Of a stretch of DNA of 64,000 bases, positions 6,431-62,160 are shown piece after piece. Numbering within the stretch: the stretch's first letter is position 1; each line of letters starts with the position of its first letter. This DNA comes from Thermodesulfobacteriota bacterium (GTDB lineage: Bacteria; Desulfobacterota_D; UBA1144; Nemesobacterales; Mycalebacteriaceae): assembly GCA_965198945.1 (NCBI GenBank), contig CBDAQI010000010.1, forward strand, positions 33,533 through 97,532. The letters are read 5' to 3'. A program made the position numbers and the translations under genes. Under the pieces are notes generated by a model that saw only the letters and a program-made list of their open reading frames with translations, did no database searches and was not told the origin of the DNA.

Positions 6431-8753
6431 CTACATCACAAACCTCATTGTAAACAAAACACCCTTTTCATCAGCGGGATTCAACTCATAGTTCCTGTTC
6501 TGAACCGTTATGTCTCCCTTCAACCCCGTGCTGTAGTTAAACTCCACACCGACATCAAAATTCTTCTTCCGCCTCATAAATGACACTCGCGCCGTCTGCG
6601 CATGTCCCCTCGCTGATTTAATCAGTGAATACACGGGATCAACCTCTCCATATGCCGCAGCAGCTCCCACTCCTATCCCATATGTGTCGCCCAACCCGAA
6701 ATACCTGTCAAATGACGCTATCACCTTGTTCGTGTCTCCGAATCTATAGGAACCGCTGCCAACACTGCCGAAAAAAGAATCCGTCTCTCTTTCAAATGCA
6801 ACGGAAAATCCGCTCGTGTGCGATATGCCCGCTCTGCCCACTCCGTATTGCCCGTTCATGAAGAAGAAAGCTCCTTTGAAAAGATGAGCGGCGCTTCCTC
6901 CGTCCACAACGGGGACTGACAGATAACCCGAATCGCGGAAGTCAATCATGCTTTTTATACTGTTCCAGGAGACAGACGGTTCTATGCGCAGGGAAGAAGA
7001 TGAAGCGGAAAGGGGAACTGAAATTTCATAGTCTCTTGCAAACTCGTTGTTTTCATAGCCCTTTACGACAACGGGTTCGGATACAGATGCTCCGGATACG
7101 GCTATGTCGCCCCGGGCAACGGGAAGCAATTCAGCTGGGTCAACAAGATCTCCCGTGGGGAGCCAGATGGCTGAGACGGAGAATTGACCGCAACCATTAA
7201 CAGCCGGGTTTCCAAGGTCTATGGCTGTCTCACAGGCAAGTTTTACAAGTTGCCTGTTTGTAAGGTGAGGCCACACATAGCGGATGTTTACAAGGGTGCC
7301 AAATACAAGAGGGGTGGAATAACTTGTGCCGGGAACTTTAAAGTAGGAAACTGTAGTATCAGTGATTTCCGTTACAACAGTAACCTCATAAGGCGCCAGA
7401 ACGCAGAAATCTCTTGCATCACCGCAACGGTTTGAATTGCCATGTGCTTCCGGAGTGACTCCTGAGCCTGTATCTACTACAATGCCATTGCGCAGCTCTA
7501 TCTTCCGGTAACGCAATGAACCGTCGGTATTTTTCAGAGGCAAGCCTCTGCTGTCTGTAAGAAGGTAGTTCTGACTGTAGAAAGAATCCTCAAGACCGGC
7601 AACCAAAAGAAGTGACCCTGTCATCTCATGAATCTCTCTCAAAGCTTCGGCCCGATGTGCCGGCTGATCCGGTGTTGTTTCAAGTCGTAAAATAGGGTGA
7701 TGATCAAGAGCTACGAAGTCCCGTCTGGTGGAGTCGGGACCAAAATTGCCGGTGCCAACAACAAATAAAGCTTCGGAATCTCTCACGGCTTCAGGAGCAA
7801 TCAGATTCACAACCTCACTAGGGTTATCCTGACCGGAAGATCTGAAAAGGTGTGCCCCGGAAATATTGACTATTCTTGAAAAAGCTCCCGGCCTTTTGCA
7901 AAACAGCCTGCTATCAGAGGGGCTGCAATCATCAGCCAGCTCGTTTACAAAACTCACACTTCGGCCACTGGAAGCTCTGTTGTCATAAAATTGAAGGAAA
8001 TCCGGAAGTGTGGCTATTTCGGCTACTTTGCGCACCCTTGTAGCATGTTGGTCATCTTGTCCGGGGACGGCCGGATTATAGTCACTGTCAACTATTATAC
8101 CGAAAGGTGTAATGGTTTCCCGGGCATCTTTTCTTTGTTGAACTTTTGCCGAGACCTTATCATATAAGGGAAGCAGCCCGGGAATTCTCCTGCGTTGACA
8201 ATCAGAACTCCAGAAACGGGAAGGATGGCAGGCAATTTCCCTGCCGGGAACGGCAGGTCCCAAATCATAAAACGAAGGAGTACGCTGTAGAGGCACAGAC
8301 TCCGGTGCCCTCACAGGCTCCGGCAATGGCACGAAGCTCTCAGAAGGGCTTCATCCGAAACTACGGAGACCGGGAGTTCCCCGCTCCACCGGCCTTCCCA
8401 ATATAGGTAAAGACTCCGGTGCCCTCACAGACTCCGGCAATGGCACGAAGCTCTCAGAAGGGCCAACCGAAACTACGGGACCGGGAGTTCCCCGCTCCAC
8501 CGGCCTTCCCAATATGGGTAAAGACTCCGGCGCCTTCACAGGTTCGGGCAATGGCACAAAACTCTCAGGGGGTAAGGGAGGAAGAGGCGCAGGGTTCGGT
8601 TGTGAAACAATTTGTCTTACACGCTGCGAAAAACCGGCGGAAGTCTGTGTGGAATCCGGCGCCCGTATCGCCGTGCCCCCGCCTCCGCCCGCACATCCTG
8701 ATAACAGGAAAACCGTGAGCGGCAAAAAAAAATTTGTATCCGCTTATCTTCAC
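6431..8753 (-). pseudogene. Lipoprotein S8 subtilase with C-terminal beta-barrel-like domain (NalP/SphB1-like architecture); one frameshift and one in-frame TGA as assembled
   Basis: Triad motifs GIIVDSD / QHATRV / PGTSYSTP and VGTGN in ORF 6431-8332; same-frame upstream ORF 8351-8725 has lipobox LSG-C; removing one T from the T9 run (8724-8732) joins GTG 8753 to give MKISGYKFFLPLTVFLLSGC. Confidence 0.8.
8297..8560 (-). repeat. Coding tandem repeat, about 2.4 copies of a 111-bp (37-aa) Pro-rich unit
   Basis: Units start at 8297, 8411 and 8522 on the + strand (spacing 114 and 111); encodes ESFVPLPE.V.APESLPILGRPVERGTPG. Confidence 0.92.
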
Positions 8754-8879
8754 TGAACTGCAAGACTCCGCACCCCAAATTATAACAAACCAGAGAGTTT
8801 TGCAATTTTTTTGTGCTTATGCTGAATCAGCGATTTCCAGTATTATATTAAAACGCATTGCAGAGGATAGATTTTAATA

Positions 8880-9060
8880 CAAATGCAAGGTGTTTTATTC
8901 CGCTTGTCCGCCGGACAACTTTTTAATAATACGTTGCCTTTTCTCCGCTGGCAGACAGCATTGTTTTTATTAAGTCATGAATTGCCTTGCTCCGGATTCC
9001 CTTCCCCCATCCCAGTTTTCATGAGGACAAGCTTGCACGGCCGATGACGGGAAAAGGGAA
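8880..9060. repeat. Degenerate REP-like copy with a flank resembling 5900-5980
   Basis: ccggattcc..gatgacggg at 8992-9050; ttctccgctggcagacagcattg resembles ctctccaccggcagacaacattg near 5920. Confidence 0.65.
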
Positions 9061-9209
9061 GAGCGGAGAAAAAGCCGGAACTGGGTTGAAAAACGGAAAT
9101 CACAGGTGGTTGTCAATCAGTTTTTTTTTATATTGCCGGTAGTGAAATTATGGTGTTTGGTTGAAGATTGCGGCAAATATTCCAATAATGAAACAAAAAA
9201 ATTATTTTT

Positions 9210-10704
9210 CTACCCCCTCACTTTCATATCTTTCATTCCCTCAGCAAACTTGACCGCGCCAGCTTTTGTCGGCATTTCAAAAATCCCGCTTGTATTATCT
9301 CTTTTCACGGCTTCAAGCAAAGCTCCGAAAGGGTTTTCAGCGCCTTTGTAACGGTCTGCAAATGTCGCGCCGTTTTCCAGTTTCAACACCCCCTCTGGGG
9401 CAAACCGCCGCGCATATTCCGCAACCCACACATGAGGCGCGAATTATGTTTTCGCCTTTCTGAAGCGTAAGAACGCACATCTATTCCCATCTCGCAGTAG
9501 GTTGAGCAGTTTCCGCACGACATGCACTGACCGCCGTTTGTTGTGATTCTAAATTTTGAGAAAAACCGCTGGAAAATTCCGAGAACCGGCCGCCATTGGA
9601 CAACCGAATCTGCACCAAACCCTTGTTCCCATAATCGGATAGAACCCGACACCGACCACCCCTGAAAAAACCGCTCCGATGAAAAACCCATACCACATTG
9701 AGAATTTCTGTGAAATTCCGCCCAGAATTCCACCGCCGGTTGCCCGAGTTGGCCCACAAAAGAAGGGTTGTGACAGTCACAAAAACCAGCACTCCGTGAA
9801 CCATCCATCTCTCAACCTTCCAGGCTTTTGTTGATTTGTCGGAAAGCTGCCGCCACGGGTCTCCCAGGAGTCTCCGCAAGCCCGCCGCAGCCGCAGACCC
9901 ATGAGCAATACCATCTTTTGCCGAATTTGTATGTCAAAAGCGGAGTTGCAATAAATGTCATCACAGCTCCCCAGAAAATAAAAAACACTCCCAGACCTCC
10001 GGCGGAACCGGTTATGTATGAGACCGTGCCGGGAAAAAGATAATCGTATTTGAGAGGCCAGAAGTAGCTGAAATAAAACTCCGGCTGTTGAAACAGTTTC
10101 AAAACATTGGGAATTATGAACGCGAATCCAAGTTGAAAAAACATCACTGAAACCGTGCGTATCTGCTGGTAACGGTTATGCCTGTAGCGCATTATCATTC
10201 TTACGCCGAAAACAAGAATCGCTATTGTGTAGACAAATCCGTAGAGAAACCAGTGACTGGTCTGGCCGGGTGAACCGCCCGTGAGCCAGACATGGAGTGG
10301 GAGAGACTATCTTCACCGCGCCTTCAAGCGGAGCGGGCCTCATATATACCAATATGTAGAATACGGTCATAAAAATTCCCGCTATCCAACCGAGACTTCC
10401 GCGTGAACTCAGATCTTTGAAGTAATTTCCATTGTTTTTAATGCCCGGAGTTCCGTTCTTTATAGGCAAGGTAGAAATATCCGGCGCCTCCGACGGCGGG
10501 GAGCCCGAAAGTGAGCAGCAAGCCCGTCCACGACCCCCCGGAGCCGCTCAAAATCTGCAAAACAAGAGCCAGAATTCCCGCGCCAACCATTGACAGGCAT
10601 ATTTTCTCACCGATTGCGAGCCGCTCTTGCTCATAAATCACGGGCTCTTCAAAGCCCAGAGTTTCCTCGTCATAGTTATATGAGAGTGTTTTTGTGTCCA
10701 TCAT
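9210..10704 (-). pseudogene. 4Fe-4S binding membrane protein, split by about 7 single-base insertions
   Basis: Rejoined frames give KRWYCSWVCGCGGLAET, RVWCRFGCP, QCMSCGNCSTYC, SCVGCGICAAVCP. Confidence 0.85.
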
Positions 10705-11971
10705 CGCAACTGCTCTCTGAAAGTTCCCGCAATCTCTTTTTCATAAAGCGAATAAAACTCAGGGTCAAAATTTGCCTCGCTCAAATTGTCCAGCACGTAG
10801 TCAAGAGGGCGTTCTTCCTCTATCCATTTTTCACACACCTTGTGGCGGTAGCGAAGCCCCATAACATTTACACCTATGGCGGCGCCGTCTCTGTGGACAA
10901 TCCTGAGCGCCGCGAGCCCGTCGGGTCTTTCCCAGTAAAGGTTTTTTTTCTCCTTCAATTTTGAGATTGACCTGTCCGTAGGTCTGATATTCAAGATCAA
11001 GAAATTTGGCGGAATTAAACCAGGTGGCGGGCTCATAGTGCGTCTCAATCCCACACACAGCTTCTGCGGCCGCTTTGCCTTGAGCTTTTCCCGTATACCA
11101 GACCTGTTGAAGCAGGTTGCGCTCCTGCCCGGTTATGATTTCCGCACAGTCTCCGGCGCAGTATATGTTTTCGGTGTCAGTTTTGAATCCCCTGTCCACC
11201 AGTATTCCCCTTCCGGTCTTTATTCCCGCACCGTCCGCAAGAACTTTATTCGGAGTCACGCCCGCGGTCAGACCCACAAATCCGCACTCTATTCTCTGAC
11301 CGTCTTTTGTAACAACCACCCCCCACCCTTCCGCATCCGTTTTCAGTAATCTCGGCGAGTTCTGTGTTCAGGCAAAGATTAATCCCTTCTTTGACTATCA
11401 CGCGGTTAACCATTGCCGATTCTTCATCCGGCAGTATACGGTTCCAATACGAACTTTCGCGCACAAGAAAAGTTACATGAACACCGCGCGAGTGAAGCAT
11501 TTCGGCAAGTTCAATCCCTATAAGTCCCCCGCCCGTTATTACCGCGTGTTTGAGGTCTTTTGAGTTTTTATAAAGTTCCCGCAGATCCATAAGGTCGTAA
11601 AGCCCCTGAACGCCTTTCAAGTCCTGCCCGGGCCAGCCGAATTTGTTCGGTTTGCTTCCCACCGCAAGCAGAAGCTTGTCAAAACTTACGGGTTGTTTTT
11701 TGTGAAGCAGCAGGCGGCTGTTTTTTGTGTCAATCTCCGTCACCCATCCGCGCAGAAGGTCAATGCGCTTTTGCCTCCAGAAACTGTCTTCATATGGCTT
11801 TGTATCCCGGTAGCTCATATGTCCCATGTAGATATACATGAGAGCCGGACGCGAATAGTGAAAATCCGATTCACCGGAAATCATAACAATTTCCCAGTCA
11901 GGCTTGAGCTCTCTTATTCTCAAAGCCGCCGAAACACCGGTTATGCCGTTTCCGATAATTGCGATTTTCAT
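10701..11971 (-). pseudogene. NAD(P)/FAD-dependent oxidoreductase, split by 2 single-base insertions
   Basis: MKIAIIGNGITG (FAD), ITGGGLIG (NAD), IYCAGDCAE; frames 11246-12049, 10831-11319 and 10701-11054 join at a G6 and an A8 run. Confidence 0.88.
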
Positions 11972-13659: not shown

Positions 13660-14577
13660 TTACAAACCCGTTTTTTTTATCACTTCCATAACTTTTTTGT
13701 AAACCCCTCTCCCTGCGGCAACCACCCCCCTGTTTCTCTCAAGCGTCCGACCCGTTGAAAAATCAAGCGGGCACCCGTCAAAATCAGACACCTCCCCGCC
13801 CCCCTCACAGACAATCGCCGCTCCCGCCGCGTGGTCCCACACATTCTCCTTGCGTCCGTCGGAATTGGGAACGCGAATGAAAACGTCCGCCTTCCCGCCC
13901 GCCACCAGAACGTATTTGCACTGGCTGTCCATTCTGACCGTTTCAGTTTGCCCGCCCAGGCCACACATAACTTTTGCCGAAGCCGTATATGCCTCGCACG
14001 TTCCCCGGGCCGTTTCGCACAAAGTGATTTTTCCTCCACTTTTTTCCGGGGCGCGGATGCGTTTTTTCTCCGAGCCGTCAATCCGGGTTTTATAAACACC
14101 CTGCCCGCGGCATCCAAGCATTATGAATCCGAGTCCGGGACATCCGAGAAGTCCGAGCACGGGAGCCCCCTCTTCAATCAGGGCGACCGCGACCGCAAAC
14201 TGGCCTCCGCTGACAAAACCCGCCGTTCCGTCAATCGGGTCAACAGCCCAGAAACGGTCTGCTTCCGCCTCCGTTGTAACCGCCTCAAAAACGCTTGTGT
14301 CCACAGAAGGTGTGAGCTTCAGTATGCCGGCGAGAATGTCCTCTCCCCGCTCTCCGCCGAGAAATTCGGGCTTTTCCTCAGCAACAATACAGTCTCCGGG
14401 AAAACCTTCCTTTATGGATTTTGTAAGAACAAACTGCGCCGCGTAGTCCGCCGCGGTTACCGGCGAACCATCCGGTTTTTGCGCGGGGCTGAAATCTGTT
14501 TTCCGCGCAGCCACGCAGACCGCGCACGCTTGCACAACCGCTTTGAGAGCCATATCCGTTTCCTTTTCAAAATTCAT
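13660..14577 (-). CDS. 3'(2'),5'-bisphosphate nucleotidase (HAL2/SAL-type inositol monophosphatase family)
   Basis: SPVTAADY, WAVDPIDGT, RMDSQCKY, ENVWDHAAG. Confidence 0.9.
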   Translation of the reverse strand: MNFEKETDMALKAVVQACAVCVAARKTDFSPAQKPDGSPVTAADYAAQFVLTKSIKEGFPGDCIVAEEKPEFLGGERGEDILAGILKLTPSVDTSVFEAVTTEAEADRFWAVDPIDGTAGFVSGGQFAVAVALIEEGAPVLGLLGCPGLGFIMLGCRGQGVYKTRIDGSEKKRIRAPEKSGGKITLCETARGTCEAYTASAKVMCGLGGQTETVRMDSQCKYVLVAGGKADVFIRVPNSDGRKENVWDHAAGAAIVCEGGGEVSDFDGCPLDFSTGRTLERNRGVVAAGRGVYKKVMEVIKKTGL

Positions 14578-15932
14578 GTTTTTGTCCGCATGTTTTCAAA
14601 CACTATCATTATCCACACCGGAACAAACTCAACCCAGACAATCACTTCCCGCAGAGCGCTTTGCCCGGAAAGCCCGTATTGGGCGTAGTAAAGCGGAAGA
14701 AAAGCCGTCAGGGAGAGAAGAGACCACATTGCCCCGCTTTTTCTCAGAGCCAAAAACGGAACCACCCAGCAGTAATACCAGGGAAACTGGGTCGGAACGA
14801 TGAGGAATAAAAGGGCGGACACAAAAAGGCACCTGCCAACCAAGTCTCCGCTTTCCCATCTTTTTGAGAAGAAAGCATATCCCGCCCCGCACACGGCCAT
14901 AAAAGCGGTCGCCACCCTCGCCGTAAACTGGCCGTGTCCGATATGGAATCCAAACATCTCCGCAACGGTTTCAGAGACAAAAAGCGTTATTCTGAAAAAT
15001 GAGCTGTTGTTTTCCCAGCTCTGCGCGTAAGCCGTGAGTCCTGAGTTTTCAACCGAAGACGAAGCAATCAGGGGCAGAAGCATGACGGCTGAAAGCGGGA
15101 CGAAGACCGCGAACAGAGAGAGCATTTTTTTCATGTCTTCTCTCCAAATCCGCGCAAGCGGAACAATTAACAGCGCCGTCCAGATTTTTATGGAAACTGA
15201 GAGCGACAGAAAAAAAGAGGCGGCAAATCCGCGCCTGTTTTCCGCCGCGAGAACAGCCGCGAGTAGAAACGGAAACAGGAGCGCTTCAAGATGGCACGAA
15301 AAGAAAATTGTGAAAACCACAAGCGGATTCCACCAGTAAATCATGGTATTCGCTCTGCCCCGGACAAGCCGTCTCAAAATAAACAGTGTCGCCGTGTCCG
15401 CCGCAAGCAGAAGCACACGCCAGGCGGTGACGCTCCATTCGGAGACAAGGTGTGAAACCGCAAAAAACGCCTGTGTCGCGGGAGGGTATATTGTTGTCAG
15501 ATGCGGATGATTGATGCGGCCGGCAATGCCGCCTGACTCCCCGGCAAGCGATTTCAGAAAATCTCCGGCGTTTCCGGTGACAACTTCGGAGGGTGAGAAA
15601 AGATAAGGGTTTGCGCCGCTTGCGGTGACGGCGCCGTCCCACAAATACCGGAAATAGTCGTCTTCAAGTACCGGATGCGAAACCAGCCCCGCCGCTCTCA
15701 TTAAAAGCCCTATTGCAAAAACGGCGGAAAACGATATTTCTCCGCCGCTTTTTTCTCCGGTGCGGATTGCCACCAGGTATAAAACCGCCGCCATACAGAG
15801 AAGCACAACAACAAAAGCCACTGGCATTTCGGCGGTTTTTTCAGGGAAGGCGGAAAATCTTCCGGAAATTCCGGTGATTATCCAAAGCGCGGCGGCGGCG
15901 CCCGCTCCGAGCATTGTGGATGTGTTTCTCAT
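14574..15932 (-). CDS. Multi-TM GT-C glycosyltransferase (GT87/DUF2029-like)
   Basis: EDDYFRYLWDG, HLTTIYPP, YWWNPL, many TM helices. Confidence 0.78.
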   Translation of the reverse strand: MRNTSTMLGAGAAAALWIITGISGRFSAFPEKTAEMPVAFVVVLLCMAAVLYLVAIRTGEKSGGEISFSAVFAIGLLMRAAGLVSHPVLEDDYFRYLWDGAVTASGANPYLFSPSEVVTGNAGDFLKSLAGESGGIAGRINHPHLTTIYPPATQAFFAVSHLVSEWSVTAWRVLLLAADTATLFILRRLVRGRANTMIYWWNPLVVFTIFFSCHLEALLFPFLLAAVLAAENRRGFAASFFLSLSVSIKIWTALLIVPLARIWREDMKKMLSLFAVFVPLSAVMLLPLIASSSVENSGLTAYAQSWENNSSFFRITLFVSETVAEMFGFHIGHGQFTARVATAFMAVCGAGYAFFSKRWESGDLVGRCLFVSALLFLIVPTQFPWYYCWVVPFLALRKSGAMWSLLSLTAFLPLYYAQYGLSGQSALREVIVWVEFVPVWIMIVFENMRTKT

Positions 15933-16838: not shown

Positions 16839-18521
16839 TTACTGAAAGAAGTAGGTAAAAGCCACACCCGCTCTGATACCCCAAATGGAGTCAACATCAC
16901 TTGGTTTCGCAATCGCATAGTGGAACCTGACATCCCCTCCTATGTTCATGTTGTCTCGGAAGGGATAATGGAGTCCCGCTTTGACAAGAATGGGCCAGCT
17001 TGTCCCGCCGTTCACCTTGTCGCCAAGGTCGTAGAACATAATGCCCGTTCCCACTCCGAGATTTCCGGTTACCGTCTCAGACTTGAAGTTCGCAACGGCG
17101 TAAACAGGAACCGTCACATGAAACAGTGTCGGACTTTTGTCCAGATTGCTAACCTGAACCGCTCCCGTGGGAGTTGCAGTGGAGCCCGGGAAAAGATTTG
17201 TCACAATCTGCCGGGCTGGCAAATCTCTGTTTGCCGCATTTGCGCTTGTCACTGCCGCCGCCGCATTTGACGCAAAAACGGGTGCCGCCGCATTTACATG
17301 GTCCGCCGCCGTTGCGCTTACCCGTGTCGCTTCAACAAAAGAGACTAAAGCAGGGCCCGCAGTATCTAATTGATTTTGTTGTGGTGTATTTTCTATGGAT
17401 TGGGTTGCTGTGTTTGCCATAACGGCTCTAATATGTGCGTTATTGGTCGCCGCGGCTGCGTTAATGCCTATGGATTCAATTGATGTGCCCGCGAGTAAAC
17501 TGTTAAGACTTTGCGCAAAATCTTCGGCTGCGGATGCATTGCCGGTTGCTGATACTGTTTGTACCTTTACCGAGCCTACCACGCTTTGTTGGTCCGACCC
17601 TGTTACAAGCGTTTCGAAAGCAGCATTGGCGCCAATAACCCCCCCAGAAGGTCTTTCAAGCAAAACCTGCGCTGTGTTGACCGCCCCTACTAACTGAACA
17701 GCAATACCGACTGCGTTCTGAGCCGAGGTATTTGTTCTGATTGCCTCCTGTTCTGCGGCTATTACCGTTTCCTTTGCCGCCGTATCAACAAGAGCTGCGA
17801 AAGTCAACTGTTCATTAACAGTCAGACCCCCGGCTTCCGCCGAGCGTAATTGACTGAGATATGCAACCAAAAACTGTTGAGCAAAAGTGGCTTTTCTTGC
17901 GTCATTTTCAAGATCGTCCAGAGCAGTTCTGATAGCATCCGGTGCAGTGGCTTGATCTATTGCAACCGCACCAGTTTGACCTTCTCTGGCAATATCATAT
18001 GCCGCAATAACCGCATCCCTAATTCTTTTCTCCTCAGTGTTTTCTGCGGGATTTGCCGCCAGTTTTGCATCTGTAAACAGGTTCAAAGAGGTGTCTTCAT
18101 CTTGACTGCTTACCTGCGTGTAGTTAAGACTGGCCGCTAAGACTTGCGCCTCAATGTCGTTTTCAAGCTGTGTTTTGGGGTTGCCCTTGACCTTAACATC
18201 TGAACTCAGACTTACCATTAATCCGGGCTCAATCTCAATCCCAAGTTCCAGATTGGATGTCCGGTCAAAATAATATCCCGCCTTCGGCGCTATGTAGATT
18301 CCGTGCTCGGTAACCTCGCCTTTGAGGTTTTTAACTGGACTCGTTGCCGCTCCGACATTTACCGTTGCCTTTCCCGGCAACTTCTTCAAATCCGCAGACT
18401 GATAGTAGTAACCGCCCGTTATGCCGAAACGCAGTTTCGTATCTCCCAATGTGTGCTCATCAGCTCTTGCGGCAGAACCCGCAAAAGTGAGCAACAGAAA
18501 AAATAATAAAACCCTTATCAT
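16839..18521 (-). CDS. Outer-membrane 8-stranded beta-barrel protein with an approximately 350-aa Ala-rich loop insertion
   Basis: Signal peptide; three amphipathic strands, a long Ala-rich helical insert, then five strands ending GVAFTYFFQ. Confidence 0.8.
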   Translation of the reverse strand: MIRVLLFFLLLTFAGSAARADEHTLGDTKLRFGITGGYYYQSADLKKLPGKATVNVGAATSPVKNLKGEVTEHGIYIAPKAGYYFDRTSNLELGIEIEPGLMVSLSSDVKVKGNPKTQLENDIEAQVLAASLNYTQVSSQDEDTSLNLFTDAKLAANPAENTEEKRIRDAVIAAYDIAREGQTGAVAIDQATAPDAIRTALDDLENDARKATFAQQFLVAYLSQLRSAEAGGLTVNEQLTFAALVDTAAKETVIAAEQEAIRTNTSAQNAVGIAVQLVGAVNTAQVLLERPSGGVIGANAAFETLVTGSDQQSVVGSVKVQTVSATGNASAAEDFAQSLNSLLAGTSIESIGINAAAATNNAHIRAVMANTATQSIENTPQQNQLDTAGPALVSFVEATRVSATAADHVNAAAPVFASNAAAAVTSANAANRDLPARQIVTNLFPGSTATPTGAVQVSNLDKSPTLFHVTVPVYAVANFKSETVTGNLGVGTGIMFYDLGDKVNGGTSWPILVKAGLHYPFRDNMNIGGDVRFHYAIAKPSDVDSIWGIRAGVAFTYFFQ

Positions 18522-19020
18522 CCTTCACACCCTCCTAAAATTCTTCAAAAGTCACATCGAACTTTTTTATTATAGCCTGATATGCGTTGAAAATTCAAGC
18601 CCCTTTTTAGGGGCTTATAACATTTGCTTGCTGCCAATTTAACTGGAGCCCCGCCTGTCGGGTCTCTGACAAATACAACACTCTGTTTATAGAGAAACTT
18701 ATAGAGAAACACTCAGGCTTCTTCAACTCTGGTTGAATTGGTAGCAAGGCCCGGCGCCCACGCGCTGGCAGAGGATAAAATAAGCCAATTGGGAGATAGT
18801 GAGGTGAAATTTGAAATTTACACCACCCCTCCGCCGCCAAAAGATGAAGACGGCATGATGTTTTGATTGAGCGCCCAGCACCTCTAACGAACCACACACC
18901 TTGTTCATTATCAGTAAACACTGTCGGGGACTTTTTTTACTTTGCAATGTAAAAAAAGAGCCTATAATCATCTTGCTTTTTAATGGTTAGTAAGAATGCC
19001 AACAAAAGGGGAAACAAGCC

Positions 19021-19311
19021 ATGAAAGAAAATAAAGCAGAGCAACTTAATTTGTTTGAAATCAAGGGCAAGGAAATAAATCCCATTGTATCCACCCTTGA
19101 AGAGTTGATAGAGGGCAGGAAATCGCACGCCTTATCTACTTTTGACAGTATTATCAGTGCGTTTGATACCTTCCGCATTTACCCTTCAAGTCATAAAAAA
19201 TCAGATATTGCTAAAACTCCCGCCGAAGGGTTGGCTTCCGATTGGAACAATGTTTTTACAGACTTAAGTATTGCGTTTGGGAACGAAACCTGTCGGGTTG
19301 ACATTGACTAA
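19021..19311 (+). CDS. Hypothetical passenger protein (ASDWNNV..DL motif, typical partner upstream of DUF2335 genes)
   Basis: 96-aa ORF overlapping the DUF2335-like gene. Confidence 0.6.
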   Translation: MKENKAEQLNLFEIKGKEINPIVSTLEELIEGRKSHALSTFDSIISAFDTFRIYPSSHKKSDIAKTPAEGLASDWNNVFTDLSIAFGNETCRVDID

Positions 19312-19738
19312 AAAGCCGCCAGTAAACACTTCTCATTTACCAAACCAACCTGCCTCAGGGCAAGGTGAATTAACTCCTCTGCAAGTTGAATTACGAACTG
19401 AGCAGTTGTTTTCTGGGCCATTGCCGCCTCCCGTAGTGCTTCAAGATTATGAAAAAATTCAAAAAGGATTTGCGGAACGTGTTATCGCAATGGCCGAAAA
19501 AGAACAAAACAACAGGCATACTATAGAAAAAGATAGGCTGGACAATGATTTCGTTGTAGAGAAAAAAGGGCAACAGTTTGCTTTTTGGATTTGTATTGTG
19601 TTAATAGGAGGCGGTGTCGGTCTCGTTGCACTCGGCTACGCTATAGCTGGGGCAGTGCTTGGCACAACCACACTTGGTAGTCTGGCATACACTTTTATTG
19701 CGGGACGCCGTTCCAAAGACAATGCCAAAAACAAGTAA
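19271..19738 (+). CDS. DUF2335-like membrane protein (passenger); start may be TTG 19304
   Basis: FSGPLPPP..LQDYE.....AERVIAMAEKEQ..RH followed by two TM helices. Confidence 0.82.
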   Translation: MRLGTKPVGLTLTKKPPVNTSHLPNQPASGQGELTPLQVELRTEQLFSGPLPPPVVLQDYEKIQKGFAERVIAMAEKEQNNRHTIEKDRLDNDFVVEKKGQQFAFWICIVLIGGGVGLVALGYAIAGAVLGTTTLGSLAYTFIAGRRSKDNAKNK

Positions 19739-54213: not shown

Positions 54214-54804
54214 ATGAATGGAAGAAAAAAATCCGTAAAAAGGTTTATATCCGCCATTTTGATACTGCAGGGGCTTTATGTGGTGTTTCCCCTTCCAGAC
54301 ATCTGGCCCGTGTCCAACTACCCGATGTTCAGCCGTGCGTCCGGCGCCTCCGTTGTCTATTCAAAACAAATAGTCGCTGTTACCAAAGACGGTGAGCGTG
54401 AGCTGAGAGCCACTGATATAGCCCCTTTTGACATTGTGCGTCTTTCAAAAGGGATAGACAGAATTACCCATGGGGACAGGTTTGCGGAGAAGGATGACAG
54501 AAGAATAAACCGCATAATTGACGCCCTTCAACTAAGTCTCTCAGACGGCGAGTCTGTGAGGCGTTTTATAAAAACGAAACTTCTTTACCAAAAAAACGCC
54601 GGAAGCGTGGAAGATGAATTGAAAACGGTTTTTCAATATCTGTCAGAGCAGTATAAGCGCAATGGCGGTCCGGATGATTTTTCTGAAATTAGACTTTACA
54701 ACATAAGGCATGATTGGACGGATGTTCCGCCGCTGTCGGCCGAGACGGAAAAAATTCTGATCTATTCAACAAAAACCGGAATGGGAGAGAAATGGAGCAA
54801 ATAG
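54214..54804 (+). CDS. Hypothetical protein resembling the C-terminal domain of HTTM proteins
   Basis: One TM then WPVSNYPMFS; adjacent to the HTTM-like gene. Confidence 0.55.
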   Translation: MNGRKKSVKRFISAILILQGLYVVFPLPDIWPVSNYPMFSRASGASVVYSKQIVAVTKDGERELRATDIAPFDIVRLSKGIDRITHGDRFAEKDDRRINRIIDALQLSLSDGESVRRFIKTKLLYQKNAGSVEDELKTVFQYLSEQYKRNGGPDDFSEIRLYNIRHDWTDVPPLSAETEKILIYSTKTGMGEKWSK

Positions 54805-55694
54805 CGGGAAAATTAAAAGACCGTTTTTTCGGTTTTTTCTTTGCCGAATCGGAAGCTTCGGCGCTTGGGGTTTGCAGGTTTTTATTCTGCGGATTTATTT
54901 TTGTTTATTACCTCGGCGCAAATTTTGCAGACTGGGGTCTGGTTCCCGATGAGCTCTGGCATCCGATTTTTCTGTTTGATATTTTCAACCTGCCGGTTTT
55001 TTCCCCGGCTGTCCTCAAGGTTCTGGGACTGGTCTGGCTTGCCTGTGTTTTTTTGAGCGCGGTCGGATTTTTCTCCCGTCCAGCCACATTTCTGTCATTT
55101 GTCATTGGTTTCTATCTCATCGGAATGACCAACAGTTTTTCCAAAACCCATCACATGGAAACCATCGTGCTTTTTGTTTTCGCAATTCTGGCTTTTTCCC
55201 GTTGCGGAGACGGTTTTTCGGTGGACCGGCTGATAAAATCTCGTCGCGGCGAGCGCATTTCTCCTTCGTGGGAATACGGGTGGCCCGTCAAATTAATTCA
55301 GGTGCTTATGATTTTCTTTTTCTGCGCCGCGGGACTTTCAAAATTGAGAAATTCTGGGCTTGAATGGGTTTTTTCAGAAAACTTGTCCGGCCTTTTTATT
55401 TCCGGACTGCTTGGAAATCAGAGGCACGAGCCGCTTTTTGACTGGCTCACTTTGATGCTTGCGCAGAAACATATCTCAATTTTTCTTGCAGGAATCACCT
55501 TACTTCTTGAACTGTTGGCACCGCTCGCATTTTTTGGACGACGTTTGAAAGTTGTTATCGGCATGGGGCTGTTTTTTATGATGGCGGGTTTCTGGGTGGT
55601 GATGGGGCTTGCTTTTCCGCAGTGGATTGCGGCTTTTGTATTCTGGTTGCCGTGGGATGAGGTGGTTCGCAGAACGAATATCAGGAGCGGATAA
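54792..55694 (+). CDS. HTTM-domain-like membrane protein
   Basis: ALGVCRFL, FSVDRL, FFCAAGLSKL, LLELLAP; likely ATG 54792. Confidence 0.78.
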   Translation: MEQIAGKLKDRFFGFFFAESEASALGVCRFLFCGFIFVYYLGANFADWGLVPDELWHPIFLFDIFNLPVFSPAVLKVLGLVWLACVFLSAVGFFSRPATFLSFVIGFYLIGMTNSFSKTHHMETIVLFVFAILAFSRCGDGFSVDRLIKSRRGERISPSWEYGWPVKLIQVLMIFFFCAAGLSKLRNSGLEWVFSENLSGLFISGLLGNQRHEPLFDWLTLMLAQKHISIFLAGITLLLELLAPLAFFGRRLKVVIGMGLFFMMAGFWVVMGLAFPQWIAAFVFWLPWDEVVRRTNIRSG

Positions 55695-56234
55695 ATTAAA
55701 AACGGAACAGTTTTTCTTCTTTGTATTGCGCTGGTTTTTGCGGGTTTTCCTCTACTGTCCGCGGAAGCGGTTGATAATGGCAGGGCGCTGCCGGAATTCA
55801 CATCAAAAAACCCGCAGGACTGGATTAACTCAAAGCCGCTGAAAAAATCAGATCTTAAGGGCGGGGTAACTCTCATATATTTCTGGGCTTTTGACTGCTG
55901 GAATTCATACCGTTCTTTCCCGTGGCTGCGCGGAATTGAAAAGCGTTTCGCGGACAGGCGGTTTAAGGTGGTCGGCATACACACGCCTGAGTTTGAGCGC
56001 GAAAAAAGCAGAAAAAATCTTGAGGCGAAAGTGAAAGAGTTCAAACTTGCTCATCCAGTTATGATGGACAATAATTTCAGATACTGGCGAAAAATGAACA
56101 ACCGCTACTGGCCCGCTTTTTATCTCGTGGACGGAGAGGGCGATGTCGTCTATAAAATGATAGGGGAAACGCACAAAGGACAGAAAAAAGCGGAAGAGTT
56201 TGAAAGGGCTTTGGAGGGTTTGGTTAACCAGTGA
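55695..56234 (+). CDS. Exported redoxin (TlpA/DipZ-like) with probable ATT start
   Basis: Frame open from 55695: signal-like helix, WINSKPL, FWAFDCWNS, VGIHTPEF, NRYWPAFY; AGGAG 7 nt upstream of ATT. Confidence 0.8.
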   Translation: MKNGTVFLLCIALVFAGFPLLSAEAVDNGRALPEFTSKNPQDWINSKPLKKSDLKGGVTLIYFWAFDCWNSYRSFPWLRGIEKRFADRRFKVVGIHTPEFEREKSRKNLEAKVKEFKLAHPVMMDNNFRYWRKMNNRYWPAFYLVDGEGDVVYKMIGETHKGQKKAEEFERALEGLVNQ

Positions 56235-56281
56235 ATCTGGTAGACTTTTCTTGAAAAAAATTATATCGTGGGCTTGAATGT

Positions 56282-57439
56282 ATGAACAGAATTGAAAGTA
56301 CATTAAGAAAGGAAGTTAAGAAGGTTCTTGTTGGTCAGGGGTATAGGATTAGCAAAGGGCAGTTTTGCTTTGACACAGATAATATAGAAAAAAAGCGATA
56401 TTTGCATCAATTTTCCCGGGCGGAAAGAATTAGAGAAAATTTTGATTTTATAAGATCATTTTTGCCTGAAGCCAGAAAACATCTTCTTGATAGTTCAAGT
56501 TTAGAAGTCTCAAAAATTCAACCCAGATTATTAGAAATAAAGTCAGGAACAAGAGAAGGAAGTTTATTCCGTTGGTGGAACCTTGTTTGGTGGAGCCTCC
56601 CATATGAAAAATCATATGGAAGACAGATGAGGTTTATTGTATGGGATGAATATCACGACGCTCCGATTGGTCTGATAGGTTTACAAAGTCCTCTTCTTTC
56701 TTGGAGTGTTAGAGACAAATACCTTTCAATAGGAGTCAAACAAAGAGATTACTGGGTAAATCAATCTCTTTCTGCTCAAAGATTGGGTTCACTTCCTCCT
56801 TACAATGGGTTTTTAGGTGGAAAACTGGTTGCTTCACTGATGACGTCGGATTTGGTTAGGGAATCTTTTAATAAAAAATATAATGAAAGTCAAACATTGC
56901 TTTTGAGAAGGAGATTGCCGGCAAATCTGCTTTTTATAACTACTACGGGTGCATATGGGAAGAGCAGTGTTTACAATCGGCTCAAGTTTAATGAGGAAAA
57001 AATCTGTGATTTTATCGGCTACACAAGAGGAAGTGGTTCATTTCATATATCTAATACTCTTTACGAAAGTTTTGTCAGTTATCTGAGAGACCAGGGCTAT
57101 AAGGCAGGAAGGTCTTTTGGGAACGGTCCTTCTGTTAAAATGAGAAATATAAGGAAAGCAATGAACTTGTTAGGTTTCAAAAACGGCTGTGAGCATGGAA
57201 TGAAAAGAGCTGTATACCTTTTTCCATTTGTTTCAAATTTGAAACCTGTAATACAGAAAGAGCAAAAGCCTGTTTGGTATCAAAGAAGTATAGAAGATTT
57301 GACAAACTACTGGAAAGAAAGGTGGGCTTGTAAAAGAGTCGACAATCATGAGAAAAGTTTTTTTTCCGGTGAAGATTATATTGATGAATTGTTAAAAGAT
57401 TTGGCAAATTGCGAGAAACTTGCGAGTAAGAATATTTAG
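56282..57439 (+). CDS. DUF4338 / Druantia DruA-like protein
   Basis: WSLPYEKSYGRQMRFIVWD..H...GLIGL, RDKY, PPYN.FLGGKLVASL, ITTTGAYGKSSVYNRL. Confidence 0.8.
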   Translation: MNRIESTLRKEVKKVLVGQGYRISKGQFCFDTDNIEKKRYLHQFSRAERIRENFDFIRSFLPEARKHLLDSSSLEVSKIQPRLLEIKSGTREGSLFRWWNLVWWSLPYEKSYGRQMRFIVWDEYHDAPIGLIGLQSPLLSWSVRDKYLSIGVKQRDYWVNQSLSAQRLGSLPPYNGFLGGKLVASLMTSDLVRESFNKKYNESQTLLLRRRLPANLLFITTTGAYGKSSVYNRLKFNEEKICDFIGYTRGSGSFHISNTLYESFVSYLRDQGYKAGRSFGNGPSVKMRNIRKAMNLLGFKNGCEHGMKRAVYLFPFVSNLKPVIQKEQKPVWYQRSIEDLTNYWKERWACKRVDNHEKSFFSGEDYIDELLKDLANCEKLASKNI

Positions 57440-57441
57440 TT

Positions 57442-58623
57442 ATGGACAAAAAACCTTACGCATATTTGCCAGAAGATCTTTTGTTGCAAATGCTTGAAAA
57501 AGCGCCTCAAACTGCAAAACAATTGGCAAATGCAATTGAAGTCAATGAATCTCAAGTAGAAAAAGCAAGGAGTTTATTAAAAGATAAAGACTTTATTATA
57601 TCTTGTTCTGGAGGCGATGTTACAGAATCAATTATGGCTACTGATGGTGCCAATATTATTGAACATAAGGCAAGTGCTGACATTGTTTTGGCAATTGCAG
57701 TTGGAGTAGATGGTCTTTCAAAAGAATCTTCAACTCATTGGCCTGAAGGCTCGCGACAGTATCAGCAATGGCAAGATGCGTTACCTCACCACGTTGCTAA
57801 TTCAAGATTGGCACAAGGTGTGATGTTCCTTATGGAATTAAGCATTCTGGCTGAGACAGACAGAAAAATCAGAATAATGGATGGTTCTCATATAACTGCT
57901 ATTCTCAAGCTCAATAGTTTGTTAAGTGCTAATGATGAAGATAGAGCTGATAAGCCATACGTGAAAGCCCTCTCAAGATTCCTGTCTGAAAACTATGACA
58001 AAGTCATTCCCGATATACCGGATATTATCGCTTCTGCTTTTTCCGACAAATCTATAATAAGTCTTACCAAATATTCTTCTTCAAGGGAGATTATAGACTC
58101 TCAATTGCAAACACTTGAAATAGTTGCCGATGACAAGGTTTTTATGTCTACGCTTCTTGAGGAAAATGAGTATACAAAACCTGTTTCTGTGGGACAATCA
58201 GCAAAAGATAAAAAAATGTGGGAAGATTTTCATATAAAGTGCAATTTGCCAGTTGACGGAGTAAATAATTCGGAACTTGAAAATCGTCTTGAAGATGCAA
58301 TTGCTCCATTCAAAATTACGGAAGATCACGAATCGAATTTGTTTTTTTGTTATTATAAACCTTTGAAACATACTATGGCTCATCGAGTTGAATTAAAGAA
58401 GAGTCTTGCGGAAAGTAAAAAAGATCTTGAGTTTTTTCTTAGAAGTTTGAAAAAACAAATAATCTTTCCAGAAATACGAGAGCCATACCCACAGTTTTTA
58501 GCAGATATTATTGCCAAAAATATTTATTTTGGAATGGAAGCGGTTAATCAGGCTATTTTCAATAATAAACTGCTACATAGCCAGAAAAATTTTGATTTTG
58601 TTCTTCCATATAGGACAAGTTAA
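57442..58623 (+). CDS. nurA: NurA-like nuclease
   Basis: IMATDGA, RIMDGSH, EPYPQFLADIIAK, consistent with the NurA RNase H-like acidic motifs. Confidence 0.78.
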   Translation: MDKKPYAYLPEDLLLQMLEKAPQTAKQLANAIEVNESQVEKARSLLKDKDFIISCSGGDVTESIMATDGANIIEHKASADIVLAIAVGVDGLSKESSTHWPEGSRQYQQWQDALPHHVANSRLAQGVMFLMELSILAETDRKIRIMDGSHITAILKLNSLLSANDEDRADKPYVKALSRFLSENYDKVIPDIPDIIASAFSDKSIISLTKYSSSREIIDSQLQTLEIVADDKVFMSTLLEENEYTKPVSVGQSAKDKKMWEDFHIKCNLPVDGVNNSELENRLEDAIAPFKITEDHESNLFFCYYKPLKHTMAHRVELKKSLAESKKDLEFFLRSLKKQIIFPEIREPYPQFLADIIAKNIYFGMEAVNQAIFNNKLLHSQKNFDFVLPYRTS

Positions 58624-58635
58624 GTAGTAAGTATT

Positions 58636-60381
58636 GTGCCTGTGCCCGAATCTATTATTGACTTACTGAATTCTGATCAGAAACCCCTTGGAGCAGTCGG
58701 TTCTCCAAGTGACACTTTTGAAGCAACTGTTGATGTTCTTGAGGTTAGCGAGAAGGAAAAACTTTTGGGTGAATTGGCTTGTTTTTGTGTAAAAGAAGGC
58801 AGTGGTGATGTGTTTGTACTGGGTCAAATAACTGAAATTACAACAGAAAACAGATGGCACCAATAGCCATCCTTTAAAGGTATTATAAAAAGACATGGCA
58901 ATCTTCCCAATTTAAGTGGTGTAGCAGATAATCGTATCGCTAGGATAAATGTCCAATCCAGTTTTATGCTGACAAGTAATCAATCAGAAGCAGAAGCACA
59001 TAAATTAGCAAATTCTCCTTCAACGGGTGTGCCTGTGAAAAGAGTAAGTAATGAGATCATGCAAAAACTCGTGAGGCAATATGAAGAACTTGTTTCTCTT
59101 GGAAACTCTTACGATACCGATGTCAGTGTGCCATTTTGGTTCAAACACTTTGGCAAGCCAACTGAAGGGGGAGATGGTGATGCATATCATATTGGAGTTT
59201 TTGGCCGTACGGGTTCTGGAAAAACTACAACAGCTGCTAACATGATTTTAGGTTATGCTCGCAATAGTTCTCATATGAATATTTTGATTCTTGATCCGCA
59301 AGAGCAGTTTTACGAAGACAATAATGTGTTGCCAAACGAAGTGAGTTTTAAAGAGCAAATATTAAAAACTGGAATGACTTATGAAAAATATAGAGTTCCT
59401 GAAGAAGTTGCATTGCCTGATGATGCAAAACTCTTTAGTGAACTTCTATTGAATTATAATTTTATCAAAATTGCTTTCGATATTTTAACTGAGCAAAAAC
59501 TTGAAGAAATGAGAGAAGCTATAGAGAGATATGTTAGCATTCGTATAGATAACGGAAGATTAAAAATCTCTACGAATCCTGAAAAATTATACGAGGATTT
59601 GCTTAATTATTTTCTTAATGAGAATGAAAATAAAGAAAGAGAACCCTTGAAGCAGGTCTATAGTACAAAACCCAAAATAAATGAGATTAAAGAAAATATA
59701 AGAAATACAATCTCTTCTAATAAAGGAAAGGAAATCTGGAAAGTGATATGCAGTCTTTTTTCAGAATCCGGGAAAAAACCTCTCAGAGAGATAGTAAATG
59801 AAGTTGTTAGGCAAAATAATTCTCAAAATGGAGAAAATGGCAAGACAATTGTTTTAAACATTTCTGCGAGAGGGGCTCAAAGGGGAATGGATGATTTGCA
59901 TGCATTGTATGTAAAAATCATTGAAGATTCTATTAAAGAAAAGGGAGCGAAACTTTATGCAGATGGGAAAAAAGCAAATTGTCTCGTTGTATTGGACGAA
60001 GCTCATCGCTTTATAAATACGTACAATTATGATCAACAAATCAAAGAATTGACTGCCAGCATTATTGATGCCGTTCGCACAACCAGAAAGTATGGAATTG
60101 GCTATATGTTTATTACTCAAACTATTGAATCACTTCACAGGGAAATTAGAGATCAAATTAGAATATTTGCTTTTGGTTATGGTCTTACAAGTGGTACAGA
60201 ATTCGCGCAAATTAAGAATATAATCAACGACGAATCAGGAGCAAAGTTTTATCGTTCTTTTATAGATCCATCAAGTAATAAAAAGTTTCCGTTCATGTTT
60301 TATGGACCTATTTCTCCTCTTTCATTTACAGGTGCGCCTCTTTTCTTAGAAATGAATGGCCAAATTATTGATTTTCCATAA
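58636..60381 (+). pseudogene. herA: HerA-like ATPase (HAS barrel plus P-loop) interrupted by a single in-frame TAG at 58864-58866
   Basis: ORFs 58636-58866 and 58966-60381 share a frame with no other stop between them; GAVGSPS, GRTGSGKT, VLDEAHRF, RKYGIG..FITQ. Confidence 0.85.
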
Positions 60382-60606
60382 ATTTTTCCTGCATGTCATG
60401 TTATTGTCCAGTTTTCTCAATTGCACCTTTTGATTTTCTCCATCTTTTGTTTATAGTCCTTAAATCTCGAAGTGATCTGATAATTTTCGTATTAGGCAAT
60501 CGTTCTTTTGTCTCAAACTGCGTTTCTTTATTACCTCAACTATAAAGTGAATTGAGAAAATATTTTCTGAAAGTTTTTTACTTGTGAAATTAAAATTTCT
60601 TCAATC

Positions 60607-61408
60607 TCACAAAATAACCGTCTTTTCCCCGTCAATAAATATGCGGTGCTCAATGTGATATTTGACGGCTTTGGCAAGCGCCTCGCATTCATTTTCCATT
60701 CCGGTTTGCTTGAGGTCTTCGGGGGTCTGGTTATGATCAACGCGGGTTGTTTTTTGTTCAATGATCGGGCCTTCGTCCAGATTTTTTGTCACATAGTGCG
60801 CCGTTGCGCCGATAAGTTTCACTCCGTGTTTGTGCGCCTGATGGTAGGGTCTTGCGCCTTTGAACGCGGGCAGAAATGAGTGGTGGATATTTATGCACCT
60901 GCCCTGCAACTCACCGGCGAGTTCGGGAGACAAGACCTGCATGTAACGGGCAAGCACAACAAGCTCCGTTCCGGTTTCCCCGATAATTTCCAACAATTCT
61001 TTCTCCCGTTTTTTTCGTGTCGCCGGGCTGACGGGCAGATGAATAAAACGGACGCCTTCGTTTTCGGCATCCGGTTTTTCTGCGGTAAAACAGGTCTTGC
61101 AGGCAGTGCCCGTCTTTTGAGACCATAATTAAAACCCTGAACGGTTTTTGCGGGTCATGAATCTCCCATTTCATTCCGAATTTGTCCGCGACCCGGGGAA
61201 ATTTCCGGCGGATTTCACCAATTTTTTGTTTTTCAGGATGAGTCCGGAACTCGGTTCTCATAAAAAATTTGCGGTTTGACTCGTCATCAAACTGCTGCAG
61301 TGACAGAAGATAGCAGCCGTTTTCAGAAAGAAACGAGGTTATTGCGGCGACTATACCGCTTCCCGCCGGGCAGACAACGGTCAGGATAAAATTTCCTTCT
61401 TCCTTCAA
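60607..61408 (-). pseudogene. purU: Formyltetrahydrofolate deformylase with an internal deletion and frameshift near 61070
   Basis: GIVAAIT, HCLQDL, LARYMQVLS, INIHHSFLPAFKGARPYHQA; the conserved VxSNH segment is missing at the frame junction. Confidence 0.9.
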
Positions 61409-62160
61409 GTTTGCACGCTTCTCTGTATCGCCCCTCTTATCTCCGCCCATTTTGCGTTTAGAAATCTCAAGTCAGATTCCGCTTTTTCAAAATCGCCTTT
61501 TTCAATGCCGCTTATAATTCTTTTCAAATCGCCCACTGAATTTTCGTTTTTCATTGAATCCTGAGTTATGAAAGAGCATATTTCACCGTAGTTGAGAACA
61601 ATTTCCCCGTCCGAGTCAAAACCGCGCAGCCAGCTGTTCATTTCGCTCAGTTTCCTGGGAAGATCTTTCAGTTTGGCAAATTCGGGATATTTGGAAACTA
61701 TGTCCCCCGTTTTTTCCAGAACTTTTTCCGCTGTCCTGATTCTCTCCATGGCGGTTCCTATGTTTTCCGGATAGAAAATTGAATCATGGTGAACGGCACC
61801 GAAACCCGCGTGTGTATAGAAAAAGTCGCGTTTTTCCTCATCAAATGCAATCAGCCACTCAAACGGAATGAAATCTTCGGAGGAAACTATGTTGAAACTT
61901 GACCGGTCTCTCAGCCTGCAGACAAAATAACGCCCGTCCTTTTTTGAAAAAAAACAGTCTCTTATTTCATTTGCTCCGATATCAAGATAGTTTGCAAGGG
62001 AGTTTCTGAATTCATCATATTCGGCTCCGCCCCATGTTGATTTGGGAGAGGCCGGTCTGTCCCAGAATTTTTCGTAAAATCTTATGTATTCCCTCCAGTA
62101 TTCATTGCCTCCCGGCACCGAATCAATCGTTTCATAAACCATCAGAGCGCACTGTGCCAT
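61405..62160 (-). CDS. Hypothetical protein (251 aa)
   Basis: Long ORF, co-oriented and tightly coupled with aroE and purU; no family recognised. Confidence 0.7.
   Translation of the reverse strand: MAQCALMVYETIDSVPGGNEYWREYIRFYEKFWDRPASPKSTWGGAEYDEFRNSLANYLDIGANEIRDCFFSKKDGRYFVCRLRDRSSFNIVSSEDFIPFEWLIAFDEEKRDFFYTHAGFGAVHHDSIFYPENIGTAMERIRTAEKVLEKTGDIVSKYPEFAKLKDLPRKLSEMNSWLRGFDSDGEIVLNYGEICSFITQDSMKNENSVGDLKRIISGIEKGDFEKAESDLRFLNAKWAEIRGAIQRSVQT

Follow-up and report, generated by a model that had tools for sequence, protein, structure and literature searches.

Our findings point to a horizontally acquired cassette of three genes, encoding a DruA-like protein, a NurA-like nuclease and a HerA-like ATPase, which most probably serves in defence against phages or plasmids, a reading to which we give a probability of about 0.62. 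The cassette lies at positions 56282-60381 of a 64,000-nucleotide stretch (hereafter the window) from the genome of a Thermodesulfobacteriota bacterium (assembly GCA_965198945.1, contig CBDAQI010000010.1, positions 33,533 to 97,532), where its three open reading frames (ORFs) are co-oriented on the + strand and separated by gaps of only 2 bp, between the first and the second, and 12 bp, between the second and the third. An earlier reading of the letters alone (the sequence-only reading) had described this arrangement, which the coordinates bear out, and had proposed the trio as a candidate defence module. That proposal is supported by our analysis, and a defensive function appears reasonably probable from the gene neighbourhood and by analogy. 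The cassette and its surroundings comprise the following features.

56282-57439, + strand: druA-like gene, 385 amino acids, DUF4338/DruA with a GNAT-like core; intact
57442-58623, + strand: nurA-like nuclease gene, 393 amino acids, with an N-terminal helical, possibly winged-helix segment; intact
58636-60381, + strand: herA-like ATPase gene, 581 codons if read through; pseudogene through a single nonsense codon
58864-58866, + strand: premature in-frame TAG at herA codon 77
about 56000-60750, no strand: island of low G+C content (GC) around the cassette, 0.30-0.39 against 0.45-0.55 on both sides

A conserved three-gene unit

The three genes are found together whether one starts from the nuclease or from DruA. 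A scan anchored on NurA, in which one genome per species was kept and the partner genes were sought by tblastn, yielded 38 loci, with DruA adjoining in 35 and HerA adjoining in 31. Four of the seven NurA loci without HerA (L017, L023, L044 and L045) have a contig edge at or within NurA, and the remaining three (L042, L043 and L046) are degraded remnants. The scan of metagenomes anchored on DruA made use of an alignment that included the canonical Druantia DruA and returned 526 relatives, the best 80 of which were examined. All three genes are present at 60 of these 80 loci, seven more end no further than 156 bp past NurA, and most of the others are too short to judge; tblastn detected DruB-E at none of the best 80. 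Co-occurrence of the three genes in other genomes, on which the sequence-only reading depended, is thus nearly obligate from either anchor. The family falls into two divergent clades with one architecture, and the members of clade 2 have identities to the proteins of the window of 40-47% for DruA, 24-29% for NurA and 31-36% for HerA. The usual gene order is DruA-NurA-HerA, with a few loci in the order NurA-HerA-DruA or with a divergently oriented DruA. We are close to certain that DruA-NurA-HerA is a conserved three-gene unit.

The sequence-only reading had also remarked that DruB-E are not adjacent to the druA-like gene, and this holds for the whole 64-kb window, in which tblastn found no relative of these proteins, the best E value for Ralstonia DruE being 0.45. 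With no DruB-E in the window or at the 80 loci, and with NurA-HerA as the constant partner, an incomplete or orphan type I Druantia was rejected.

Departures from the common layout are few. Of the exceptions in which partners would have had room, the clearest is L116 (659-4956), where a DruA 44% identical to that of the window is followed by a 1054-amino-acid Sacsin (HATPase-like)/NOV_C protein, with no NurA-HerA; because DruA adjoins a Sacsin-domain/NOV_C protein here, this locus suggests that DruA can couple to other ATPase-type partners. At L127, DruA is followed by an unassigned ORF of 395 amino acids. The clade-2 locus L103 (9721-19314) has gaps of about 3 kb between DruA (9721-10767), NurA (13736-14785) and HerA (17635-19314), which suggests internal insertions in the operon. 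L049, on a plasmid of Euzebya pacifica (6998-10113), holds a distant NurA-like gene (24% identity) together with a DUF87 gene, and DruA is not annotated there; two small hypothetical genes precede the pair, and genes for a restriction endonuclease and a cytosine methyltransferase, along with ruvA, are nearby.

The proteins and the lesion in herA

The identities that the sequence-only reading had given to the three proteins were accepted by the hidden Markov models of Pfam and PADLOC, in the case of NurA at the level of the family. The DruA of the window matched Pfam PF14236 (E value 1.2e-59) and, over nearly the whole model, PADLOC DruA1 (E value 7.7e-88). The protein aligns end to end and collinearly, at 30-33% identity, with the type I DruA of Ralstonia pUW163a and of Nitrosococcus pNWAT01; in the Ralstonia pUW163a operon, DruA is followed by three genes and then by a DEAD/DEAH-box helicase of 1851 amino acids. 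The motifs GR..R..VWD, LPPYN..LGGKL, ITT..G.SS.YNR, GYT.G.G.FHI and FG.GP are common to the cassette DruA and type I DruA, and the DruA of the window retains all 71 positions that are invariant across the other copies.

The AlphaFold2 (AF2) model of DruA, built with 38 homologues, has a mean predicted local distance difference test score (pLDDT) of 84.7, and its fold matches in the PDB are almost uniformly GNAT acyltransferases, such as GCN5 and small bacterial GNATs. The region that matches GNAT structures spans residues of about 80-250 and gives a TM-score of about 0.5 when normalised by the length of the target. The best matches are protein and RNA acetyltransferases, and a large chain of the small-subunit (SSU) processome, presumably the NAT10/Kre33 acetyltransferase, is also among the fold matches. 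A conserved stretch at residues 166-183, QRLGSLPPYNGFLGGKLV, is predicted to form a strand and then a helix, and in this it resembles the cofactor-binding site of GNATs. Acyl-CoA binding or transferase activity of DruA is putative, with support limited to the LPPYN..LGGK segment and its strand-then-helix context. By sequence, DruA matches no GNAT family of Pfam, DruA being the sole Pfam match, and NCBIfam gave no useful match for DruA or NurA. DUF4338 has been stated to be a GNAT domain (PMC10853773), an assignment independent of our fold result. The GNAT/Mom-like fold suggested by the sequence-only reading therefore stands in part: its GNAT half agrees with the predicted fold and with the published assignment, and its Mom-like half is not supported, as the top 50 viral fold matches of the DruA model in BFVD include no entry under the name Mom and Pfam matches DruA only. 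DruA-like folds in BFVD are found in uncharacterised proteins of giant viruses, namely Faunusvirus (E value 4e-15), Yasminevirus and Dasosvirus, and also in a Caudovirales fragment. Distant DUF4338 genes are present in the Pelagibacter myophages Mosig and HTVC008M (MT647606.1, 14499-15410; NC_020484.1, 86422-86928). No function is assigned to DruA in the literature that we found.

The NurA protein of the window itself has no Pfam match, and searches of the PDB by sequence, with the single protein as well as with the family profile, gave no matches, so that the NurA call rests on the Pfam matches of its relatives and on the fold search. Pfam NurA (PF09376) is matched by 13 of 16 close family members, with a best E value of 2.4e-9, and a member of clade 2 reaches 42 bits against a gathering score of 21. 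The family holds 321 homologue clusters at 90% identity, many of them with a precomputed NurA match, and among 1.84 billion proteins its profile matches 441 representative clusters, 47 of them at an E value of 1e-30 or lower. The nine best Foldseek matches of the NurA model in the PDB are all NurA structures (2ygk, E value 7.7e-5). At least 97% of 91 sequences conserve residues D68, E132, D147 and D355, which, to judge from their position in the motifs, probably constitute the catalytic site. Weak matches to HRDC, HTH_5 and TrmB were obtained for residues 2-53.

HerA matches DUF87 in Pfam (E value 1.1e-9), and its best PADLOC match is mad8 of MADS (E value 4e-19), the matches to HerA models there being weak (E value 7e-12 or worse). 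Against solved chains, the HerA family profile matches the HerA central-domain protein 8wiv (E value 2.7e-8), Sulfolobus HerA 4d2i (2.7e-7) and TdpA (3.8e-7), and also the HerA chains 8xau and 8ziq. The Walker A (GRTGSGKT) and Walker B (VLDEAH) motifs are intact and conserved, and at least 97% of sequences retain the catalytic residues of the cassette nuclease and ATPase alike.

In the window, the TAG splits the herA frame into a 76-amino-acid N-terminal piece and an ORF of 471 amino acids that begins at an internal ATG (58966). The affected column, within the motif NRWHE[ED]PSFKG[IV]IKRHG, is Glu or Asp in all 37 aligned homologues, and a single-base change from GAG to TAG would thus explain the stop. 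An assembly error was rejected, as Logan contigs from three public runs of two samples, which represent three independent run-level assemblies, show 0 differences across 56000-60800. A recoded sense codon was rejected as well, TAG being an ordinary stop in this genome, where it ends 4 of 31 long ORFs with druA among them, and the homologues having Glu or Asp at that codon. Prolonged decay of herA was not seen, all 102 residues invariant across the other copies being retained. Since the runs agree, TAG is a normal stop and the invariant residues are kept, we judge the lesion to be real and recent, and we take it to be the sole lesion. Because the TAG would sever the N-terminal barrel region of HerA, the local cassette is very probably non-functional, with druA and nurA intact. 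The copy in the window is an example of the system and not a working instance of it.

Disruption is not confined to the window. In L035 (9208-10968), from a metagenome-assembled genome (MAG) of Falkowbacteria, herA has an in-frame TAA at about codon 47-51; the herA of L095 has a stop at about codon 388 and that of L118 a frame change, and L016 combines a frame change in herA with a broken druA. The clean single-gene disruptions (the window, L035, L095 and L118) are all in herA, four out of four, and none is in druA or nurA alone, a result with a chance of about 0.03 if lesions fall in proportion to gene length, with n being only 4. This repeated loss of herA specifically gives a hint at how the system is held in check.

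Lateral spread and candidate function

Hosts of the cassette include sponge-associated Gammaproteobacteria, Bdellovibrionales, many Patescibacteria (candidate phyla radiation, CPR), Candidatus (Ca.) Omnitrophus, Ignavibacteriales, Eubacteriaceae, Brocadiales, Campylobacterota (Arcobacter) and Dadabacteria, with protein identities to the window of 45-82%. As the sequence-only reading had observed, the cassette is richer in A and T than its flanks, the mean GC being 0.353 for the trio against 0.479 for the left flank and 0.486 for the right; Ca. Mycalebacterium zealandia shows the same contrast at the syntenic locus, with a GC of 0.379 in the cassette and of 0.505 and 0.509 in its flanks, and GC is lower in the cassette than in the flanks at 30 of 34 other loci. 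This degree of identity between distant hosts, in combination with the depressed GC, implies that the cassette was acquired horizontally and has spread laterally, and that it is foreign in composition to its hosts. Among the copies compared (L008, L009, L010 and L012), the DruA and NurA of the window are closest to those of Ca. Mycalebacterium (L008), at 79% and 82% identity, whereas its HerA is 69% identical to the Mycalebacterium protein and 75-76% identical to gammaproteobacterial sponge-MAG copies. Because HerA is nearer to the gammaproteobacterial copies, herA appears to have a history different from that of druA and nurA, which suggests recombination between cassettes. A phage-borne origin was rejected: relatives of the cassette are absent from 2.9 million IMG/VR viral contigs, and among 50,697 phage records there is no NurA-like gene and DUF4338 occurs only distantly, in the Pelagibacter phages. 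Plasmids yielded canonical Druantia DruA and distantly related NurA-like genes only.

In other genomes the cassette frequently has restriction or other defence genes as neighbours, or is carried by transposons, which is in accordance with a role in defence. DNA methylases are the commonest Pfam families among 129 nearest-neighbour ORFs. A type I HsdR gene lies near the cassette in L024 and L127, a PLD-SNF2 helicase gene occurs in L023 and L030 with an Eco57I/MmeI-like methyltransferase gene abutting druA, a large N6/N4 methylase is found in L025 and an OLD-family ATPase-TOPRIM gene in L026, and the neighbours further include antitoxin and Zeta-toxin-like genes, AlpA, a large deaminase and Fic. 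Two independent Tn7-like elements (tnsA-tnsB-tniB-tniQ) have the trio just past tniQ, directly 3' of it in L130 (5402-14279) and with one further ORF between in L001 (1285-10973). The genes downstream in L001 are patatin, Endonuclease_NS and Prok-JAB/ThiF. The trio is not accompanied by integrase or replication genes.

HerA-NurA resection machines are known from archaea and Deinococcus, where a dimer of NurA is docked on HerA, a hexameric translocase of double-stranded DNA, and the translocase pushes DNA into the nuclease, so that it is processed from free ends; the structures matched by the two proteins of the cassette are consistent with this. In the mechanism that we propose by analogy, the HerA of the cassette would form a hexameric, ATP-driven translocase of double-stranded DNA and feed DNA to a NurA dimer, which would degrade it from free ends, so that linear invading DNA would be destroyed. 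DruA would supply the specificity, either (a) by sensing infection and licensing the motor or (b) by marking self, be it DNA or a host factor, through acyl transfer; we regard this specific self-marking model as doubtful.

Several observations weigh against the view of the cassette as a mobile defence system. Confidence in the AF2 model of NurA is low (pLDDT 65), and each of the GNAT fold matches of DruA is weak taken singly, the best having an E value of 0.0095. The association with restriction and other defence genes is qualitative, without a matched control for chance. In sponge-symbiont genomes, including that of the window and its Mycalebacterium relative, the neighbours of the cassette are housekeeping genes. 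The window and Ca. Mycalebacterium zealandia have the cassette at one shared site, after the OAD-DCC1-redoxin genes, and between these two genomes the cassette is 79-82% identical, against 69-91% for the flanks. Given the shared site and a divergence like that of the flanks, the cassette is an old resident of this lineage, inherited vertically for some time, and a recent insertion in this lineage was rejected.

One specific form of the defence reading is a restriction-modification-like (R-M-like) system, in which GNAT-fold DruA would label self DNA with an acyl-type, non-methyl mark and HerA-NurA would shred unmarked DNA from its ends. We consider such a system unlikely. The GNAT-like core of DruA, seen in the fold matches and in the published assignment (PMC10853773), would suit it, but action of DruA on DNA is purely conjectural; the closest structures are acetyltransferases of protein and RNA, and no Mom entry appears among the top 50 viral fold matches. 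The presence of DUF4338 in Pelagibacter myophages and of DruA-like folds in giant viruses is a pattern met with in many DNA-modifying enzymes, though neither NurA nor HerA has a recognised modification-reading domain. According to a preprint, host DNA acquires a new 'm6A' signal from type I Druantia, a system without a methylase domain, with the gene responsible unassigned (10.1101/2024.04.14.589459). DruA is the only protein common to type I Druantia and the trio, but the signal is preprint-based and not assigned to DruA. The clean lesions, all four in herA with druA spared and with the chance of about 0.03 given above, follow the order expected if the restriction arm must go first; four lesions are, however, a small sample, and in L016 druA and herA both have lesions. 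If self-marking were true, the trio would be a minimal R-M system of a new chemical type, and DruA would be the source of the unexplained DNA modification reported for type I Druantia.

Very improbable, in our estimation, is a housekeeping or stress module for DNA repair, in which bacterial HerA-NurA would carry out end resection, as in Deinococcus and archaea, and DruA would be an acetyltransferase with a regulatory role. In its favour, end resection is the canonical task of the NurA-HerA pair, archaeal NurA and HerA are among the top fold and profile matches, and at the conserved site in both dadabacterial genomes the neighbours are housekeeping genes. A repair function is at odds, however, with the patchy distribution across phyla at high identity and with foreign GC, with the rarity of the family (the 441 representative clusters among 1.84 billion proteins), with carriage by Tn7-like elements and adjacency to restriction genes, and with repeated pseudogenisation or reduction to remnants. 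Neither Mre11 nor Rad50 adjoins the cassette, its neighbours being the redoxin-family gene and a split purU, and the other setting in which DruA is known is a defence system. A selfish addiction or exclusion module for element maintenance or competition, with HerA-NurA as a toxin restrained by DruA or with DruA itself as a GNAT toxin, would fit the mobile-element cargo, the toxin-antitoxin neighbours, the loss of herA first and the established precedent of GNAT-fold toxins in toxin-antitoxin systems, but it has little to recommend it given that no integrase or replication genes accompany the trio, that three large, strongly conserved proteins are unlike typical toxin-antitoxin pairs, that the cassette is not on the 2.9 million viral contigs and that plasmids hold only the canonical Druantia DruA and distant NurA-like genes. 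A horizontally acquired anti-phage or anti-plasmid cassette remains the reading that we prefer.

The immediate surroundings of the cassette in the window include one further feature.

56227-56241, + strand: terminator-like hairpin, 3' of the redoxin gene and upstream of druA; from a consensus scan only

The flanking redoxin and purU genes that the sequence-only reading had named, with their convergent orientation, were confirmed, purU itself being split. The upstream neighbour is an AhpC/Redoxin-family gene on the + strand that ends at 56234, and the terminator-like hairpin suggests that it and the cassette are transcribed separately; the downstream neighbour, purU (60607-61450, - strand), is convergent with the cassette. 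Homology of the redoxin/AhpC-family gene (55695-56234, + strand), which is 65% identical to the Mycalebacterium protein, is intact from about 55725 despite there being no ATG, GTG or TTG start before 55968, and its start may therefore be a rare codon directly 3' of the stop of the preceding gene. purU lies in two frames, an ACT-domain ORF (60911-61450) and a separate ORF (60607-60996) that spans only positions 75-181 of the Formyl_trans_N model, with about 15 linker codons missing, and it appears to be a pseudogene; the Ca. Mycalebacterium relative has no purU at the corresponding position. Between the DCC1-like and redoxin genes, 54214-55694 (+ strand) contains two overlapping ORFs of 196 and 326 amino acids, the latter of membrane-like appearance, neither of which has a Pfam match or a counterpart at the syntenic Mycalebacterium locus. 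For this genome the finding is a modest one, a decaying island in a sponge-symbiont-like genome with a broken purU next door.

Relation to known systems

The trio can be set beside several known systems, each of which accounts for a part of it. In type I Druantia, DruA is the first gene and has the same length and domain layout as the DruA of the trio, and in both systems DruA is paired with a large ATP-driven DNA motor. Type I Druantia, however, has DruB, DruC, DruD and a YprA/DUF1998-type DruE helicase of ~1800-2100 amino acids, all of which are missing from the trio in the window and at the 80 loci, and where type I Druantia has DruB-E the trio has NurA and a HerA ATPase of the FtsK-HerA superfamily. 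Type I Druantia is reported to be among the most potent defence systems in phage screens in E. coli (10.1101/2024.04.14.589459).

Like the HerA-NurA end-resection complex of Sulfolobus, Pyrococcus, Thermococcus and Deinococcus, the trio has adjacent genes for a nuclease of NurA fold, in which acidic residues are conserved, and for an ATPase of the HerA/DUF87 type that bears the Walker A and B motifs. The relationship is remote, in that the NurA profile has no PDB match by sequence and HerA matches at an E value of about 1e-7, and the trio differs from the end-resection pair in its obligatory DruA, in the extra N-terminal helical segment of NurA, and in its lateral mobility and foreign composition. 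The association with Mre11-Rad50 that characterises the archaeal operon is not found in the trio, whose annotated neighbours are restriction, mobile-element or unrelated housekeeping genes.

A hexameric HerA-family ATPase as the core of a defence complex, with an attached effector, is the plan that Sir2-HerA, DUF4297-HerA and TdpA (8wet/8wfd) have in common with the trio, and the closest solved relatives of its HerA are the defence-associated 8wiv, TdpA and 8xau, along with Sulfolobus HerA. In the trio the effector is a NurA nuclease and not Sir2 or DUF4297, for which neither HerA partner gene has a PADLOC or Pfam match, and a third, GNAT-fold gene is present. MADS is a multi-gene system (mad1-mad8) that includes the methyltransferase mad2, whereas the trio has three genes and only the mad8-like match of HerA. 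The predicted core of DruA has a fold like that of GNAT acyltransferases (GCN5, the NAT10/Kre33 type and small bacterial GNATs), but the protein is much larger, at 385 amino acids, and has extra helical regions at its N and C termini.

The sequence-only reading had not recognised the trio as a named system, and it is not catalogued in PADLOC-DB v2.0.0, where no model matches the NurA component and DruA matches DruA models only, which are filed under Druantia. Full-text searches of the available literature library found no description of a DruA-NurA-HerA trio, and a prior description elsewhere is possible. The parts of the cassette are known and associated with defence, but their combination, which is strongly conserved, appears to be undescribed; in it the signature protein of type I Druantia has another effector as its partner, the much simpler HerA-NurA, a translocase-nuclease that is well understood. 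As a three-gene unit spread over many phyla, it represents, by virtue of this simpler effector, a tractable system for establishing whether DruA serves as a sensor, a regulator or a self-marking enzyme, and with the trio the HerA family of defence systems would gain a member based on NurA.

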